Position numbers and translations under genes: made by a program. The notes beneath the pieces are model-generated. The model worked only from the letters and a program-made list of their open reading frames with translations, made no database searches and was not told the DNA's origin. From NCBI GenBank assembly GCA_031389685.1, contig JANMSV010000211.1:2263-66262 (forward strand): 64,000 bases of DNA. Direction: 5' to 3'. Origin of the DNA: Betaproteobacteria bacterium. GTDB lineage: Bacteria > Pseudomonadota > Gammaproteobacteria > Burkholderiales > SG8-39. Below, piece after piece: positions 1-21,684 of the stretch (positions are counted from its first letter, which is position 1; every line of letters begins with the position of its first letter).

Positions 1-1418
<1,418 letters not shown>

Positions 1419-1419
<1 letters not shown>

Positions 1420-1841
1420 TGGCCGCCGCCACCATCCACGTCGACGTCGTCAGCGCCGAAGCCTCGATCTACTCGGGCGAGGCGGAATTCGTCGTATTGC
1501 CCGGCGAAGCGGGCGTGCTCGGCATCTATCCGCGCCACACGCCGCTCATCACGCGCATCAAGCCGGGCACGGTGGAGATCACACCGGCTGGGGGCGGCGA
1601 GAAGCAACTGATTTTCGTCGCCGGCGGCATCCTGGAGGTTCAGCCCAAGGTGATCACGGTCCTTGCCGACACGGCGATCCGCGGGGCGGACCTCGACGAG
1701 GCGAAGGCCAACGAGGCTCTGAAGAAAGCCGAGGAAGCGCGCGCCAAGGCCCAGGACAAGCAGGAAATCGCCGCCGTGGAAGGCGAACTGGCGATGCTCG
1801 CGGCGCAGCTCGCGGCGATCAGGAAGCTTCGAAAGCGCTAG
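1419..1841 (+). CDS. atpC: F0F1 ATP synthase subunit epsilon
   Basis: 140-aa ORF directly after atpD. N-terminus [38 protein letters not shown] is typical of F1 epsilon, followed by a helical C-terminal half. Confidence 0.95.
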
Positions 1842-1886
1842 AAGAATCGAGCGCGGCTTGGGCCGCATCTTGTCCGTGGAGTCCGT

Positions 1887-3047
1887 GTGATCTATATCGA
1901 TTTCCCGCTTGGATCGGCACACGGCTGGGGCGTATGCGGCAAATATTGCACGCGCGAACTGGCTCGGCTGACGCCGACGCGGATGCTGGCGGAGCAATTT
2001 ACGCCGGAAATTGTCGGCGATGGTTTTGAATGGCATGAACTCGCGCAGTTTCTTTTTCCGCACGAACGGCTGGCCGGGTTCCCCCGTCAGGGGGAGGTGA
2101 CCCGGCTCGATGCCCCGTTGCTGGAATGCGTAGCAGGCAGGGAGATGCTGCCCGCGAGTCCTAGGGTTCGGGGAACACGCACGGTCGGCTACTCGTTTTT
2201 CGAGGACAACATCCTCAAGCCGGCCTGGATCGACAATGCGCGCCGCCATTTCGACTGGGTTGCCACCGGTTCAGCATGGTGCACGCGGCTTCTCAAAGAG
2301 CATGGACTGGAAAAGGTTTCGACCGTGGTCCAGGGCGTGGACCACAAAGTCTTCTTTCCGCGCCCGGACGACAGGGAATTCTTTCGTGACCGCTTCGTTG
2401 TGTTTTCGGGCGGCAAGTTCGAGCTGCGCAAGGCTCAGGACATCGTGATTCGGGCGTACAAGGTCCTGCAAGACCGGCACGCTGACGTCATGCTGGTCAA
2501 TTCCTGGTACAACCCTTGGACCTTCAGCGTGCAAACCATGCTGTCCACCAAGCTGATTCGGTTCAACCCTCCGGAGGCTTCGTACGTCGGCTTCGTCAAT
2601 GCCGTTCTGGCGGACAATGGGATCGATGTGACGCGGGTTGTCACCCTGTTGCCGCAGCCCAATCTGATGATGCCCCGCGTCTACGCCAACTGCGACGTGG
2701 GCTTGTTTCCAAACCGGTGCGAAGGCGGCACCAACCTGGTACTCATGGAATTCATGGCCAGTGGCAAACCGGTCGTGGCCTCCAATGTCACCGGCCACGC
2801 GGATGTATTGAATCCGCACAACGCGCTGCTGATTGAAGCGAAGCACACCACCGAGATCCGGAATCAGGCCGGCGAGCCGATCGCCGTATGGCCGGAGCCG
2901 GATTTGGACCAGACCATCGCCCAGCTCGAACATGCGTATCAGCATCGCGATGAGCTGCGAGCAGTTGGGGAGCGTGCCGGTCGGGATCTGGCATCCTGGT
3001 CCTGGGGCCGGACGGCTGAAGAGTTTCTGCGGCTACTGTCGGCGTAG
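1887..3047 (+). CDS. glycosyltransferase, GT-B fold (family 1/4-like)
   Basis: 386-aa ORF with GTG start. C-terminal half has the GT1/GT4 nucleotide-sugar binding pattern (FPNRCEGGTNLVLMEFMASGKPVVASNVTGHADVL). Hand count of 2461-2560 gives 56% G+C, well below neighbouring genes. Confidence 0.8.
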   Translation: MIYIDFPLGSAHGWGVCGKYCTRELARLTPTRMLAEQFTPEIVGDGFEWHELAQFLFPHERLAGFPRQGEVTRLDAPLLECVAGREMLPASPRVRGTRTVGYSFFEDNILKPAWIDNARRHFDWVATGSAWCTRLLKEHGLEKVSTVVQGVDHKVFFPRPDDREFFRDRFVVFSGGKFELRKAQDIVIRAYKVLQDRHADVMLVNSWYNPWTFSVQTMLSTKLIRFNPPEASYVGFVNAVLADNGIDVTRVVTLLPQPNLMMPRVYANCDVGLFPNRCEGGTNLVLMEFMASGKPVVASNVTGHADVLNPHNALLIEAKHTTEIRNQAGEPIAVWPEPDLDQTIAQLEHAYQHRDELRAVGERAGRDLASWSWGRTAEEFLRLLSA

Positions 3048-3156
3048 CGCCCTGGGCGCGCCAAGGCGCAGGGCAAGACGGATACGCGTTCGATGCCGGT
3101 CTTCGCTGGTGGCGCAGCATGGTGCGATCAGGCAGCTGCGCAAGAAGTAACGCGGA

Positions 3157-4950
3157 TCAGGCCCTTTCGATCAATTTTTTGAAATCGTCGTCGACGCCGA
3201 GCACGTAGCGCGCCAGGTCGTCAATCGCGCCCTTGAATGTTTCCGTGGCGAGGCGCACGGTGACGCGGCCGAAGCGCCGTACGTTGATCAGCTCGACAGT
3301 GGCGGTCGCCGCCTCGTAATCGCCCCGAATGTTGACCTCGCACGGCAGGAGTCCTGTGACGATGAACATCGCCGGGCGTTCCTTTCCCTCATGACGCGCC
3401 CGCTGCTGGAACGCGACGCTCAGCGACTTGAGGTACTGCTCGCAGCGGCCGATGTCTTCGCCCAGGAGCATAAACTTGGGCGGCTCGGCCGCCCGGACGC
3501 AATAACGGAGCTGGACCTGCGCGCAGAGCTCCTTACCCGCCGGCAGCTTGAGCGTGCGGTTGGTGACCGATGCCTGGGTGAGCGTCACCGAGGGCAGCTT
3601 GCCGACATAAATGAATTCGTAGGGTGCGCCCGCATGCGGTTCGTGCGTGTTCATTTCCTTGCTGAATTCGGTCAGGTACTGCAAGGCTGCGCGCATCGCG
3701 GCGTCGAGCGCCGCCATCGCCTTCGGTTTCGCGTCAGCCTGCGCCTTTCTGAAGGAAGCCTGTTGCCGCATGATTTCGACGGCTTCCATCCGGCGCGTGG
3801 TGGTCATCCATTTCGGGTCGCTCTCGGGCGCCGCGCGCTCGCCGCGCTCGAATGCCGCGCGTTTCTGCTCTTCGGCCGCGCCCCAGTCGAATAACGCCTG
3901 TTCCTTCTTGAGGCGCACCTCCTGTTCCGCGCGCAGGCGCTGAGTCTCTTGCGTCTCGATGCTCTTCGCGAACTGGTCGAGATCGTCGATCAGCTGGTTG
4001 CGCATCTTCTGCTCTTCCACCGCTGCCGCCGGGGACTGCAAGGTCGCCTGGGGTACCGTCTTGGCGAACTCGGTGCCGCCGCCCAGGCTGTGGTAGTTGC
4101 GCAGGTCGCTCGCAAACTCGCTGGCGCTCTGGTAGCGGTCCTGCGGTCGCTTGGCAAGCGCTCGATCCACGATGCGGTCGAATCCCGCCGGGATCTGCGG
4201 GTCGATCTGCCGCAGCGGCGGATGCGGCTCGCCGGCGATGCGCTGCATGAGGGCGAACACCGTGGTGTCGCCCGGCCATTCGAAAGGGTTGCGCCGGGCG
4301 AGCAGTTCGTAGAGCACCACGCCGAGGGAAAAGATGTCGGCGCGCGCATCGATCGCCTGGCCGAGCACCTGCTCGGGGGCCATGTAGCGCGGTGAGCCGA
4401 GCGCCGAGCCGGTCTGGGTCACGTTCGAGGCGGGAACGTAGGCGACCCCGAAATCGGTGAGCTTGGCGCGCCCCGAGGGCGCCACCACCACGTTGGCCGG
4501 CTTGACGTCGCGATGCACGATCGAGAACTGGTGCGCGTGGTGCAGCGCCTCGGCCACCTGGGCAGTGACGTCGGCGGCGACATGGAAGGGGATGCGCTGC
4601 GGATCCTTCAGCATCTGGTGCAACGAGCGCCCTTCGAGCAACTCCATCGCAATATAGGCGGTGTCGCCTTCCTGGCCGACGTCGAAAATCGTCACGATGT
4701 TGGGATGGCTCAGCCGTCCCGCGGAGCGCGCTTCACGCAGGAAGCGGATACGCACCTCCTCAATCACATCTTCCGGCAGGTCGGGAAGCAGCGTCTTGAG
4801 GGCGACCTCGCGCTCGATGATTGGATCGACGGCGCGATACACAGCCCCCATGGCCCCGCGGCCAAGCTCTCCCAGGATGCGGTACCGCCCGAGCATTTTT
4901 TGTCCCACTGTCCGGCCGTCCTCCTCGTCCCAGGCGCCCATGATGCCCAT
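3157..4950 (-). CDS. Hanks-type serine/threonine protein kinase with uncharacterised C-terminal region
   Basis: GRGAMGAVY glycine loop, VALK, HRDVKPAN, DFG and APE motifs in the first ~285 aa. The remaining ~300 aa are unassigned and have no TM segment. Alternative start ATG 4896 (MLGRYRI) is preceded by GGGA. Confidence 0.85.
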   Translation of the reverse strand: MGIMGAWDEEDGRTVGQKMLGRYRILGELGRGAMGAVYRAVDPIIEREVALKTLLPDLPEDVIEEVRIRFLREARSAGRLSHPNIVTIFDVGQEGDTAYIAMELLEGRSLHQMLKDPQRIPFHVAADVTAQVAEALHHAHQFSIVHRDVKPANVVVAPSGRAKLTDFGVAYVPASNVTQTGSALGSPRYMAPEQVLGQAIDARADIFSLGVVLYELLARRNPFEWPGDTTVFALMQRIAGEPHPPLRQIDPQIPAGFDRIVDRALAKRPQDRYQSASEFASDLRNYHSLGGGTEFAKTVPQATLQSPAAAVEEQKMRNQLIDDLDQFAKSIETQETQRLRAEQEVRLKKEQALFDWGAAEEQKRAAFERGERAAPESDPKWMTTTRRMEAVEIMRQQASFRKAQADAKPKAMAALDAAMRAALQYLTEFSKEMNTHEPHAGAPYEFIYVGKLPSVTLTQASVTNRTLKLPAGKELCAQVQLRYCVRAAEPPKFMLLGEDIGRCEQYLKSLSVAFQQRARHEGKERPAMFIVTGLLPCEVNIRGDYEAATATVELINVRRFGRVTVRLATETFKGAIDDLARYVLGVDDDFKKLIERA

Positions 4951-5049
4951 TAGCCGGTTGAAATGCTATGCGCCGGGTGTCAATGCACGCAGGGCGAAGC
5001 GCCGCCCATGCCGAAGCAGGCGAGCGGGGAGGGCGGCCAGAGGAGGAGG

Positions 5050-5712
5050 CTAGCCCCGCGTCCCGCGCTCGCCGCCGCGGTTCTTGAATTCGTACGCGAA
5101 CACCACATAGCGCTGCGGGCCACCGGCGCGCAGCGCGTCGAACGGAAAGCAGGTGACCAGAGTCAGCCGGTCGGGTCCTTCCTGCTTCGCCACCCAGACG
5201 TCGCGCCGGTCCAGCACGTTGGCATCGCGCACGAGGTATGCGACCCGCCTGCCATCCGCACGCTCGATCTCGAGCGCGTCACCGGGTTTGAGGTGGCGCA
5301 GAAACGCGAGATGGGTATCGCGGTGCCCGCCGATCACGCTGTTGCCGGTTTCGCCCGGCACCGGAGTGCCGGAGACGTGGCCCGGACCGAAGGCCATCGC
5401 GCTGCCGTCGGCGCCTGCAAGGACATAGCGCTCGATTCCCAATGCTGGCGCGGAAAGACGCGCCACCGGCCAGGTATCGGCCCAGGGCCAGGGCTTGACT
5501 TGCTTTTCGCCTTTGAGCGTGCGCGACCAGGCGTGCGCGATGAGTTCCTGCGCGAGCCACGCCTTGGCCTGTATCCAGGCGCCGCGGCCGAACTGCAGGA
5601 CGCCAATCAAAAGCAACGCCAGCGCCAGGTATTTCAAGGGCCAGGCAGCGCGCGGCTGGACCTGCGCCTCCGGCCAGGCGCATTCCGCGCCCCATGCGAG
5701 ATCGGGCTTCAC
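5050..5712 (-). CDS. sortase (Gram-negative / proteobacterial dedicated sortase type)
   Basis: TLVTC catalytic Cys motif, GGHRDTH His motif and an N-terminal membrane anchor (LKYLALALLLIGVL). GTG at 5712 forms a GTGA overlap with the stop of the relic sorting-signal frame. Alternative starts TTG 5724 and TTG 5637. Confidence 0.8.
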   Translation of the reverse strand: MKPDLAWGAECAWPEAQVQPRAAWPLKYLALALLLIGVLQFGRGAWIQAKAWLAQELIAHAWSRTLKGEKQVKPWPWADTWPVARLSAPALGIERYVLAGADGSAMAFGPGHVSGTPVPGETGNSVIGGHRDTHLAFLRHLKPGDALEIERADGRRVAYLVRDANVLDRRDVWVAKQEGPDRLTLVTCFPFDALRAGGPQRYVVFAYEFKNRGGERGTRG

Positions 5713-6064
5713 GCCAGCCGCCAACGCCGCGGTGCGAGCAGCATCGCCAACGCGAGCAGCAGCATGAGGGCACCCGTCAGCATCGCGTAACGGCTGTCAG
5801 TCGCGCCCTGGCGAGCATCCCGGAGACGCGGAATGAGACGTCGGTGGACAGCAGCGGCGCGCTCGGCGCCTGCTTGCCATCGAGGGACCTGAGCAGCAGC
5901 GCACCGTGCTGTGTTTCGGAGGCGTGGGCGCGGCCGGCAAGAAGGAGGACGGCGGCGACCAGGACAATTGCCGTGGCGAGCGCAACCGAGGCAGCGAGCG
6001 CGACGAACGCGACCAGGTCCAGGGCGACGATGCGGGCGTTGGCGGGGCGCGTTTCGGTTTGCAT
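5709..6064 (-). pseudogene. remnant of the sortase target gene (N-terminal stump plus out-of-frame C-terminal sorting signal)
   Basis: ORF 5777..6064 (ATG at 6064, 95 codons) encodes a membrane/signal segment, then GALLLRSLDGKQAPSAPLLSTDVSFRVSGMLARARLT, then TGA. A second frame, 5709..5783, reads MLTGALMLLLALAMLLAPRRWRLA*, i.e. TG + hydrophobic stretch + basic tail. Its stop overlaps the sortase GTG. Confidence 0.55.
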
Positions 6065-6222
6065 GGGAGTGATGTCCTCGGCGGTGGCGTGGCTGCCAGG
6101 ACTGCATTGAAAGGCGCGGCACGGGCCGCGCGCGGTCCGGGTGATGGACAGGCGGCGAAGAATTCTGGCAATCCCGTGGCAGGCCCCGCCGCGGCTGCGG
6201 CGATGGGCTATAGTCGACCGCC

Positions 6223-6912
6223 ATGTCCCGCCGCATCGCCATCGTCGAGGACGATCCGGCCATTCGCGCCAATTACAGCGAAGCACTGCGCAAGCACGGT
6301 TTCGAGGTAAGCGCGTACAGCGGACGTGCGCAGGCCCTGGCGGCGCTGCGTTCGCGCTTGCCGGACCTTGCGATCATCGACATCGGGCTGGGCAGCGACG
6401 CCGACGCCGGATTCGCCCTGTGCCGCGAGTTGCGTGCACTTTCCGCCACGCTGCCGATCATTTTCCTTACTGCGCGGGACAGCGACTTCGACGTGGTTTC
6501 CGGACTGCGCCTGGGCGCGGACGACTACCTCACCAAGGACATCAGCCTGCCGCACCTGTTGGCGCGCATCGGCGCGCTGTTCCGCCGCGCCGAGTTCTCG
6601 CACGAGGCACAGTCGGCCGAGGAAGTGCTCGAGCGCGGCGCGCTGCGAGTAGATCTCAAGCGCTTCGCGGTCACGTGGAGCGGCAATCCCGTGCCCCTGA
6701 CGCTGACCGAGTTCTGGATGGTGCACGCCCTTGCCCGGCATCCGGGCCACGTCAAGAGCCGGGAGCAATTGATGCGCGAGGCCAACCTGGTGGTCGACGA
6801 TGGCACCGTGACCTCGCACATGAAGCGCATCCGCCACAAGTTTCAGGGCATCGACGCGCAGTTCGCGCACCTCGAGACCGCATACGGCATGGGTTACCGT
6901 TGGAAGGAGTGA
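6223..6912 (+). CDS. OmpR-family response regulator (sortase-system associated)
   Basis: Receiver domain (IAIVEDDP, phospho-acceptor context LAIIDIGL) plus winged-helix C-terminus (GYRW). Divergent from the sortase locus. Confidence 0.9.
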   Translation: MSRRIAIVEDDPAIRANYSEALRKHGFEVSAYSGRAQALAALRSRLPDLAIIDIGLGSDADAGFALCRELRALSATLPIIFLTARDSDFDVVSGLRLGADDYLTKDISLPHLLARIGALFRRAEFSHEAQSAEEVLERGALRVDLKRFAVTWSGNPVPLTLTEFWMVHALARHPGHVKSREQLMREANLVVDDGTVTSHMKRIRHKFQGIDAQFAHLETAYGMGYRWKE

Positions 6913-8564
6913 GGCGACGCTTCGCGTTCGGGTTGCGCGCACAACTGGTGTTGATGGCGCTGGCATTGTTCGCCCTGCCTTGGGCGGGCGTGGCCTATGT
7001 CAACGAGCTGGAGCGCGTACTGCTCGAGGGGCAGGAGCGCGCCCTGATGGGCACGGCGCGCGCGGTCGCCACCGCGCTGCACGGCCGGCCGCAGCTCCTG
7101 GTCGCGGTGCCGGCACGCGACGATGCCTTGCGCCGCGAAGCGGAACTGGAACTGCAGCGCCTCGCCGAGAGCGAAGGCCGATTGCCCGACGCCGCCGCTG
7201 CGCAACCGCTGGTGCGCGAGTCCGAGTTGGCTGCGCACGCGGCGCAGGCCGAGATCGCCGCCATTCTGCGCGGCCTGCAGCGCGCCGAGTCGCGCATCTG
7301 GGTGGTGAACCGCCGCTACCAGGTGCTCGCCCTGGAGGGTAGCTTGCGCCGCGCGCCGCCGCAGGCAAGTGCAGAGGACGGGTTTGGCCTTGCGGCGTGG
7401 CGGCGCCTCGCAGGCTGGCTGATCCAGCGCCCCAGCGAGGATTTCGCCGAGTCGATGCCGGACGACGTGCTTGCCACGGGGCGGTACATTGCTGCGGCGC
7501 TGCAGGGTACGCCGGCGACGCGCACGCGGCTCACGCCCGACAGCCGCGCGGTGGTGATGTCTGCCGCGCACCCCGTGTGGAACCGGGACGAGGTGGCGGG
7601 TGCCGTGGTGGTCGAGGAGACCACGAACCCGGTTGCCAGCCTGCGCAGCGCGGCGCTCGAGCGTTTGCTCATGCTCACGCTGGCGGCATTTGGAGGCGCG
7701 GCGCTCCTGCTGATCGCCTACGCGTCCTGGCTTTCTTATCGCATCCGGCGCCTGCGCGACGAAGCCGAACACGCGATCGACGCGCGCGGCAGGTTGGCGC
7801 AACTGAGCGCCGGCTCGGACGCGGGCGATGAGATCGGCGACCTGTCGCGCAGCTTTTCCGCCATGCTGGCCAAGCTCGCGCAGTACCACGCCTATCTGGA
7901 GAGCATGGCGGGAAGGCTGTCGCACGAATTGCGCACGCCGATTGCGGTGGTGCGCTCGTCGCTGGAGAATTTGAAGCTGGCGACCTCCGCCGAGGAAACG
8001 CGCACCTATGTCGCGCGCGCCGAGGACGGTCTGTCCCGCCTGAACACTATTCTGCAGCGCATGACCGAGGCGACGCGCCTCGAGCAGGGTCTGCGCACCG
8101 CGGAAAGCGAGCGCTACGACCTTTCGGCCCTGGTGCGCGGATGTGTGGAGGGCTACCGGCTGGCCTATGCCGCCACCCCGTTGCTGCTGGAGCTTCCCGG
8201 CCGCGCACTCGAGGTCCGGGGTTCCGCGGACCTGGGCGCGCAACTGCTCGACAAGCTGGTCGAGAACGCGGTCGAGTTTTCGCCGGGCGGCGAGGCGGTG
8301 CGCATCGTGCTGCAGGAACGCAATGCCCAGGCGCTGCTGAGCGTGGAGAACAAGGGACCTCTGCTGCCTGCGGCGATGCGCGGCCGGCTGTTCGAGTCCA
8401 TGGTCTCGGTGCGCGAGGTGCCCGCTGGCGGTGCACCGCATCTGGGGCTGGGACTTTATGTCGCGCGCCTGATCGCCGAGTTTCACGGCGGCTCGATCGA
8501 GGCGGCCGATCTCGATTCCCGCGACGGCGTTGCGCTGCGCGTGCGGCTGCCGCTGGCGCGATAG
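6909..8564 (+). CDS. sensor histidine kinase (sortase-system associated)
   Basis: GTG 6909 overlaps the RR stop (GTGA). Has N-terminal TM, periplasmic region and second TM, H-box SHELRTPIAVV, N-box LDKLVENAVEF and G-box GLGLYVARLI. The listed ORF from 6141 is an upstream frame extension over the RR gene. Confidence 0.9.
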   Translation: MRRRFAFGLRAQLVLMALALFALPWAGVAYVNELERVLLEGQERALMGTARAVATALHGRPQLLVAVPARDDALRREAELELQRLAESEGRLPDAAAAQPLVRESELAAHAAQAEIAAILRGLQRAESRIWVVNRRYQVLALEGSLRRAPPQASAEDGFGLAAWRRLAGWLIQRPSEDFAESMPDDVLATGRYIAAALQGTPATRTRLTPDSRAVVMSAAHPVWNRDEVAGAVVVEETTNPVASLRSAALERLLMLTLAAFGGAALLLIAYASWLSYRIRRLRDEAEHAIDARGRLAQLSAGSDAGDEIGDLSRSFSAMLAKLAQYHAYLESMAGRLSHELRTPIAVVRSSLENLKLATSAEETRTYVARAEDGLSRLNTILQRMTEATRLEQGLRTAESERYDLSALVRGCVEGYRLAYAATPLLLELPGRALEVRGSADLGAQLLDKLVENAVEFSPGGEAVRIVLQERNAQALLSVENKGPLLPAAMRGRLFESMVSVREVPAGGAPHLGLGLYVARLIAEFHGGSIEAADLDSRDGVALRVRLPLAR

Positions 8565-21199: not shown

Positions 21200-21303
21200 T
21201 CAGTGCACTATAATGTCGTGAATTGCCGACAGGCTGCAGTTGACGCTAGATGCGAGCACAGACTAGTCTTTTTGACCCGCAGTCTACAAAGGAGAATCAA
21301 ACA

Positions 21304-21684
21304 ATGACAGTCCTCTTTCGTCGCGTAATGGCTGGTTTTCTGATCGTTTGCATGGGCGGACTCACTGTGCCCCTGCCGGCGCTGGCCGGGATTGTAGGTA
21401 CCGACACGGTCGTGGCGGGCGCGGAGCGCGAGCGCCTCGCGAGCGTGCTCGATCGGAGCGAGGTGCGAGTGCGGCTCCAGGCGCTGGGCGTGGACCCCGC
21501 GAACGCCAGGGCCCGGGTCGCGGCGCTCTCGGATGCGGAGGCCGCGCAGCTCGCCGCGCAAATGGACGAACTGCCGGCGGGCGGGGATCTGCTAGGCGCA
21601 GCGGTTCTGGTCTTCCTGGTGCTGCTGGCCACCGACATCATGGGGTACACCAAGATCTTCCCGTTCACGCGCTCGGCGCGCTGA
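21304..21684 (+). CDS. PA2779-family small exported/membrane-anchored protein
   Basis: Signal peptide, LQALGVDPANARARVAALSDAEAAQLA, LPAGGD, and a C-terminal TM ending TDIMGYTKIFPFTRSAR. AAGGAG Shine-Dalgarno at 21289-21294. Confidence 0.6.
   Translation: MTVLFRRVMAGFLIVCMGGLTVPLPALAGIVGTDTVVAGAERERLASVLDRSEVRVRLQALGVDPANARARVAALSDAEAAQLAAQMDELPAGGDLLGAAVLVFLVLLATDIMGYTKIFPFTRSAR

Follow-up and report, generated by a model that had tools for sequence, protein, structure and literature searches.

A dedicated sortase cassette with a collapsed target gene in a betaproteobacterial contig: a 1741-bp loss between short direct repeats and its counterparts in relatives

Proteobacterial dedicated sortase (Pds) systems are defined by the pairing of one enzyme with one substrate. 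Their families comprise the sortase (TIGR03784), its target (TIGR03788), the kinase PdsS (TIGR03785), the response regulator PdsR (TIGR03787) and PdsO (TIGR03789) (PMC3237569; PMC11580497). The target, a VIT-vWA protein encoded beside the sortase, is described as the only LPXTG protein of its genome (PMC3237569). The locus considered here lies in a 64,000-nucleotide stretch of contig JANMSV010000211.1 (positions 2,263 to 66,262 of the forward strand), which we refer to as the window and whose positions are used throughout. Between 5050 and 8564 the window carries a Pds cassette consisting of a class GN sortase, PdsR, a PdsS-like kinase and a target remnant; a full-length VIT and vWA target with an LPXTG-type signal upstream of the sortase is missing. 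We conclude that the cassette's only known substrate gene has very probably been pseudogenised by one microhomology-mediated deletion. A first-pass annotation of the window had proposed an out-of-frame internal deletion of ~1.5-2 kb that left enzyme and sensors without a cis-encoded substrate. Both points hold up against intact relatives, which place the loss at 1741 bp, and the following features carry the argument.

5777..6064 (-), remnant open reading frame (ORF) of 95 codons, with its ATG at 6064 and a premature TGA at 5777..5779
5709..5810 (-), C-terminal target remnant (residues 666-698) with QGATDS, a hydrophobic helix and an RRWR tail, out of frame with the upstream ORF
5802..5810 (-), deletion junction, one copy of the 9-bp direct repeat CAGGGCGCG, seen as the overlap of two blastn blocks
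5709..5712 (-), GTGA overlap of the former target stop with the sortase start, the translational-coupling junction

The reference for these remnants is L001 (JAQBXT010000006.1), the closest intact relative among 80 loci obtained by a genome scan with the sortase as query. Its sortase protein is 93% identical to that of the window, and a 698-residue target gene, scoring 772 bits against TIGR03788, is located between its pdsR and sortase genes. Comparison of the L001 target with the window by tblastn gives two matches and nothing else in the 64 kb. Target residues 1-92 align with 6064..5789 (84% identity, E 2e-27), and residues 666-697 align with 5810..5715 (91% identity, E 1e-4). The window retains residues 1-88 and 666-698 of the 698-residue orthologue; residues 89-665 are gone, and with them most of the VIT domain, the entire vWA domain and the LP that opens the sorting motif. 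Neither remnant matches an NCBIfam or Pfam profile in hidden Markov model scans with E up to 1. Their homology is not called into question by this, given that the TIGR03788 profile starts only at target residue 72.

Inspection of the 95-codon ORF reveals a 48-codon leader or signal segment (6064..5921), 40 residues of the mature protein that run into the start of the VIT domain, and 7 frameshifted codons that end in the TGA, 64 nt short of the sortase GTG. The first-pass annotation had described this ORF as a signal segment followed by the start of a VIT domain and a stop, and the match to target residues 1-92 agrees with that description. Its second element, a frame at 5783..5709 (-) that reads MLTGALMLLLALAMLLAPRRWRLA up to the stop, had been taken for a sorting signal. 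The frame does correspond to the target C-terminus, with the helix and basic tail in place, but the TG of its MLTG is not the motif, which is LPQGAT. Across the family the motif follows the consensus LP[QRK][TG][AG]T (~70 loci), and in the window's clade it reads LPQGATDS, of which the window retains QGATDS. Compared with the intact orthologues that relatives carry at this locus, the gene shows the 1741-bp loss, the frameshift and the premature TGA expected of a pseudogene, and the 95-codon ORF is better annotated as a target pseudogene than as a hypothetical protein.

The alignment of orthologues that had been suggested for mapping the junction resolves it to the base. Comparison of the window with L001 by blastn gives two collinear blocks, the second spanning L001 5915-6057, which share only the nine bases CAGGGCGCG. 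This repeat, single in the window, occurs twice in L001, at 4174-4182 and 5915-5923, and the two copies are 1741 bp apart. The boundaries are identical when L088, a second intact relative, is used, and the deletion is likewise exactly 1741 bp. Since 1741 mod 3 = 1, the reading frame is shifted. Copy 1 of the repeat falls in VIT codons 85-88 (A-R-A-R), and copy 2 encodes the Q-G-A of the sorting motif. With L001 as a proxy for the ancestor, the repeat is present at both breakpoints, one copy is kept, the flanks are collinear and nothing has been inserted, which is the pattern of a deletion between short direct repeats. Target genes of the clade (68-71% G+C) have 12-28 pairs of 9-bp direct repeats with a spacing of 1 kb or more, and substrates for such deletions are therefore plentiful.

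The events at the locus may be reconstructed as follows. The ancestral target was a 698-residue protein in which a 48-residue leader was followed by VIT and vWA, then by a C-terminal domain and the sorting signal (LPQGAT, hydrophobic helix, RRWR), and its stop codon overlapped the sortase start. Slippage or illegitimate recombination between the two copies of CAGGGCGCG would then have excised 1741 bp. As a consequence, the VIT-vWA protein would no longer be produced, and the sortase would have lost its translational coupling to the target. The overlap itself can still be read in the window, and its earlier interpretation as a target-sortase coupling junction is borne out by relatives, where a GTGA, ATGA or TTGA overlap is found in the intact loci L001, L088, L090 and L091 and in the in-frame collapsed alleles. 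Those four intact loci also carry GGAGG 7-11 nt before the sortase start. The corresponding sequence is GGCGG in the window (5713..5725) and in L081, an AGG to CGG change that is synonymous in the old target frame. Translation of the sortase is probably weaker because of this change.

Could the collapse instead be an assembly or sequencing artefact, with the real genome carrying an intact gene? The window probably derives from a metagenome assembly, and the exact response-regulator protein is without a record in a public gene index, both of which leave room for an error. The junction itself argues otherwise, since a 9-bp repeat is far below assembler k-mer length and cannot collapse an assembly. 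A protein search recovers the 95-residue product (P0001, 98% identical) on contigs assembled separately from SRR20217200, SRR20217204 and SRR20217208. The three Logan contigs match the window without gaps at 99.4-99.9% identity, junction included, and the longest of them reaches flanking genes on both sides. Because three independent public assemblies share the identical junction, an artefact is very unlikely, and comparable deletions, seen in many independent assemblies from short and from long reads, make it harder still to credit. A junction-specific 24-mer has no match among Joint Genome Institute (JGI) metagenome contigs.

The deletion appears to be recent, because it is common only to relatives that are at least 99.4% identical and because no amino-acid change in the C-terminal remnant is peculiar to the window. 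The short gene, whose conservation as an intact ORF in relatives would have told against a collapse, is found only in the strain-level contigs described above; more distant relatives have different ORFs that result from different deletions. Taken alone, the window allele is an ordinary case, the recent pseudogenisation of a known system. It nevertheless presents gene decay that is readable at single-base resolution.

The remaining parts of the cassette surround the pseudogene.

5050..5712 (-), class GN sortase, 220 residues, GTG start, N-terminal membrane anchor, catalytic His/Cys/Arg kept
6065..6222 (no strand), intergenic region between the divergent pdsR and the target/sortase operon, conserved in relatives
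6223..6912 (+), PdsR, OmpR-type response regulator of 229 residues, TIGR03787 match
6909..8564 (+), PdsS-like sensor histidine kinase of 551 residues, with a GTG start that overlaps the pdsR stop

The sortase scores 219.3 bits against TIGR03784, above the curated cut-off of 158.25, and 97 bits against the Pfam Sortase profile. Alignment with relatives shows IGGHRDTH with the His, TLVTC with the Cys and GGPQRYVV with the conserved Arg, in agreement with the motifs named earlier (TLVTC and GGHRDTH). The GTG at 5712 is the true start, since relatives begin M/V-K-P-D/E-L-A-W-G-A-E-C at that place. PdsR, whose gene adjoins the rest of the cassette and is divergent from the sortase, scores 373.4 bits against TIGR03787 (cut-off 335.7). 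The kinase reaches 535.3 bits against TIGR03785, which is below the cut-off of 612.2 and yet its best match by a wide margin. Of the three genes that the first-pass annotation had listed as full-length members of the system, the sortase and the response regulator therefore clear their family cut-offs and the kinase does not. Its best-scoring stretch covers profile positions 257-703, and its sensor region is ~150 residues shorter than the TIGR03785 model. All close relatives show the same shortening, including those with an intact target, where the kinase has 551-556 residues; in L088 the gene call gives 536 residues, but the alignment spans all 551. The short kinase is thus a clade trait, or a divergent sub-type, rather than a sign of decay, because relatives with intact targets share its length.

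That annotation had also described a four-gene system. The sortase, PdsR, the PdsS-like kinase and the target remnant are all present, but the canonical system has a fifth gene, pdsO (PMC11580497), which had been overlooked. The window contains no pdsO detectable by tblastn with the verified PdsO of L056 (210.6 bits) as query, the best window E being 1.0. The same query gave a hit in no more than 16 of the 80 genome-scan loci. The window resembles a canonical Pds system in its sortase and response-regulator families, in a kinase whose best match is PdsS, in the divergent arrangement of pdsS-pdsR relative to target-sortase, which is also that of betaproteobacterial relatives, and in remnants orthologous to full-length TIGR03788 proteins. 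It differs in its truncated and frameshifted target, in the absence of pdsO and in the short kinase sensor.

The genes that remain look constrained. Ratios of nonsynonymous to synonymous divergence (dN/dS) between the window and L001 are 0.11 for the sortase, 0.09 for PdsR and 0.12 for the PdsS-like kinase. The sortase on the window branch shows no excess of amino-acid change, with a dN to L002 of 0.099 for the window versus 0.128 for L001, and these values also fit a recent deletion. To judge from these comparisons, all three genes are intact and still appear to be under constraint. The intergenic region 6065..6222, which presumably holds the promoters, is 88% identical to that of L001, and its alignment continues through to L002 and L003. 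A scan of 4900..6400 gave no sigma-70 consensus or promoter-like site, and its single terminator-like site is at chance level.

Intact relatives define the setting in which the loss took place. In L001, L088/L089, L090 and L091 the cassette likewise lies between the ATP synthase operon and the genes for a HAD hydrolase, TauE and a CoA-transferase, the sortase is 80-94% identical to that of the window, and the leader and GTGA coupling are alike. They differ in possessing a target of 698-701 residues, in the two copies of CAGGGCGCG found in L001 versus one in the window, and in the segment between sortase and atpC.

Further relatives were collected by a protein search with the 95-residue ORF and by a second scan that covered JGI metagenomes. 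The same syntenic site holds no fewer than ten additional alleles in which the target has collapsed or is partly deleted. Their junctions differ, they are concentrated in the lineage nearest the window, and several are in-frame, leader-only ORFs of 39-76 codons whose ends lie at the sortase start or overlap it. The alleles and the loci in which they occur are given below, with type A as the window's own.

Type A, the window: out of frame; sorting-signal remnant untranslated
Type B, L086: 76 codons, in frame, ending ...APSAP/RCKRLA and stop
Type C, L084/85 and L087: 73 codons, in frame
Type D, L002 and L003: 65 codons, in frame
Type E, L096: leader-only ORF of 44 codons; the intact counterpart is L104
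Type F, L102, L103, L111 and L117: leader-only ORF of 39 codons
Type G, L112: 87 codons, in frame
Type H, L151: leader followed by ~90 unrelated residues
Type I, L108: partial deletion, in frame; leader, C-terminal domain and sorting signal kept
Type J, L139: partial deletion
Type K, L142: partial deletion

Types B-G resemble the window allele in that most or all of the target is removed and the leader and the downstream sortase are kept. They differ in their junctions. Types B-D and G preserve the reading frame and leave ORFs of 65-87 codons, in contrast to the out-of-frame allele of the window. In types B-D the ORF stop still overlaps the sortase start, and types E and F end beside the sortase. 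Wherever an intact relative allowed mapping, the ends of the collapsed alleles lie at short GC-rich repeats. The independence of these events was judged from junction sequences and flanks. Type A keeps segments that are absent from types B and C/D; type B has clade I-like sequence on both flanks, and types C and D have clade II-like sequence on both flanks. Because types A, B and C/D are not derivable from one another, at least three independent events took place, to which types E-K add more. Within type D, separate deletions in L002 and L003 are disfavoured, as the two are collinear through the junction and have ORFs of equal length, with recombination blurring the picture.

A census of target states, binned by the identity of the sortase protein to that of the window and corrected manually for filter errors, gives the following counts.

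Sortase identity >=75%: 8 collapsed, 0 partial, 7 intact
Sortase identity 60-75%: 7 collapsed, ~3 partial, ~41 intact
Sortase identity <60%: 1 collapsed, 0 partial, ~80 intact

The substrate is lost in about half of the loci whose sortase is at least 75% identical to that of the window. Among the partial alleles, L108 (2698..3491) encodes an in-frame short target with the leader, residues ~399-434 and 533-673 and a complete LPQGAT signal, and without the VIT domain and most of the vWA domain; to judge from this signal, the shortened protein may still be a sortase substrate. In L004 (305..2283), a short-read metagenome-assembled genome from soil, target matches fall in two frames with a break between residues 363 and 395, which could mean either that this target too has been inactivated or that the assembly is wrong there. 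L017, L022, L057 and L063 show frame breaks of the same kind; since their contig names point to long-read assemblies, these breaks may stem from errors in sequencing.

Two fates follow target loss in these relatives, eventual decay of the sortase or long-term retention of the target-less cassette. Decay is evident in the L086 sortase (402..1064), where TLVTC has become TLVTW and the catalytic Cys is replaced by Trp. The sortases of L111 and L151 have both lost the catalytic His and Cys, and that of L117 has a 30-residue internal deletion. In L102/L103, CYPFDAWRAGGS has become CNAFDAWHAGGN, with four substitutions directly after the Cys.

Retention is seen in clade II, where L002, L003 and L084 are all without a target. 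Pairwise dN/dS among these three is 0.12-0.16 for the sortase (dS 0.64-0.80), 0.09-0.11 for PdsR and 0.12-0.18 for PdsS, and pairs with intact targets lie above these values at 0.20-0.27. L002 and L003 have one common junction, and the adjoining 51-nt tail has diverged by 37% and the leader by 20%. The deletion that they share is old, because the tail beside it has diverged to this extent. The tail diverges 2-3 times faster than the 48-codon leader, whose dN/dS is 0.27-0.38; by these rates the leader is still constrained after target loss.

Recombination complicates the timing of these events. Comparison of L002 (collapsed) with L090 (intact) gives a dS of 0.08 in pdsR/pdsS and of 0.57 in the sortase, and their flanks and two-component genes are ~95% identical. 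Because of this seven-fold difference in dS, target-sortase alleles appear to move between strains by homologous recombination. A tree of concatenated genes places intact L090 beside collapsed L002 with 100% bootstrap. It was abandoned for counting deletion events, as the difference in dS points to recombination. Relaxed selection as the origin of the divergent L002 sortase was rejected, since its dN/dS is 0.13 with high dS.

These data bring in a second explanation, in which the target-less state is stable. Here the sortase, PdsR/PdsS and the short leader ORF would still work, with another substrate or with another role for the leader peptide, and loss of the target would have been favoured by selection. 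The independent deletions with different junctions in relatives (types B-H and the partial types I-K) speak for this, as do the low dN/dS in target-less L002, L003 and L084 relative to pairs with intact targets, the age of the L002/L003 deletion, the constrained and slowly diverging 48-codon leader, and the stop/start overlap with the sortase that three in-frame alleles keep. The window allele does not fit the pattern well, as it lies out of frame, has lost its coupling to the sortase and is found only in relatives at least 99.4% identical. Moreover, the damaged sortases of L086, L111, L151 and L117 are what would be expected of a truly dedicated enzyme that has become dispensable, recombination at the locus (L002 versus L090) blurs the timing of events, and no alternative substrate has been identified. 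We therefore regard a stable, working target-less state as unlikely, though not negligible.

Extended to the lineage, and held just as tentatively, the explanation would be that a soil betaproteobacterial lineage loses its VIT-vWA protein repeatedly and that a target-less module of sortase, PdsR/PdsS and leader mini-ORF persists and works. In this module the leader mini-ORF would abut or overlap the sortase start, and intact and deleted alleles would be exchanged by homologous recombination. Possible selective causes are a phage or predator with the target as its receptor, from which loss would offer escape, or the cost of producing the target. If such a module does persist, either the 'dedicated' sortase would act on another substrate or play another role, or the leader peptide itself would be functional.

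A third explanation retains the normal substrate and moves its gene, such that a target relocated or duplicated elsewhere in the genome would serve the sortase in trans. The intact sortase and two-component system are compatible with this, and the view of the genome is limited to 64 kb. Within that view, the tblastn search with the L001 target gives no second target-like sequence, and a regular-expression scan for sorting signals gives a single match, ending at 21681 (+), in a PA2779-family protein. Every intact homologue with examined context is at the same syntenic site beside its sortase, and the target is described as the sole LPXTG protein of such genomes and as encoded beside its sortase (PMC3237569). 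A substrate supplied in trans is consequently improbable, more so than the stable target-less state.

The PA2779-family protein itself (21250..21681, +; NF033919, 117.9 bits) has a C-terminus, ...MDELPAGGD followed by a hydrophobic stretch, that is superficially like a sorting signal. It was discarded as a sortase substrate, being a chance match to the regular expression and probably unrelated to sortase.

Pseudogenisation of the substrate gene by the 1741-bp deletion is thus the reading we prefer, and several considerations weigh against it or limit what it implies. A second target or another LPXTG-type substrate could lie beyond the 64-kb window, and the allele could be one variant within a mixed population. 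The loss of coupling and the lower sortase expression are predictions drawn from the nucleotide sequence. In addition, the clade II cassette has long been under purifying selection, and from the lack of a cis-encoded target it does not follow automatically that function is lacking.

Comparison with other systems puts the loss in perspective. Some genomes have a rhombosortase and no GlyGly-CTERM protein (table in PMC3237569), and the window resembles these orphans in having a dedicated C-terminal sorting enzyme for which no substrate can be recognised. The rhombosortase belongs to an unrelated enzyme family, and no remnant of a substrate gene is described for it, in contrast to the readable deletion scar of the window. 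A full-text literature search of limited coverage returned no description of target-less Pds cassettes, which is weak evidence of novelty. What the locus adds is the exact junction together with the pattern in relatives, in which recurrent loss of the substrate is followed by either decay or conservation of the sortase. In Shewanella algae, PdsS/PdsR raises expression of pdsO, the target and the sortase 126- to 799-fold and has been linked to beta-lactam tolerance (PMC11580497). The natural series of intact and collapsed alleles could serve to ask whether the Gram-negative sortase is truly limited to a single substrate and which other functions the PdsS/PdsR regulon includes.

Beyond the cassette, the segment between atpC and the sortase (1836..4975) is a variable spot. 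The window has a GT4-like glycosyltransferase (1887..3047) and a 597-residue Ser/Thr kinase (3157..4950) at this position, and the segment is not common to L001 or L088, which have unrelated DNA there. In other relatives the same spot is occupied by a gene of 549-559 residues, a gene of 197 residues or a formamidase-like gene.

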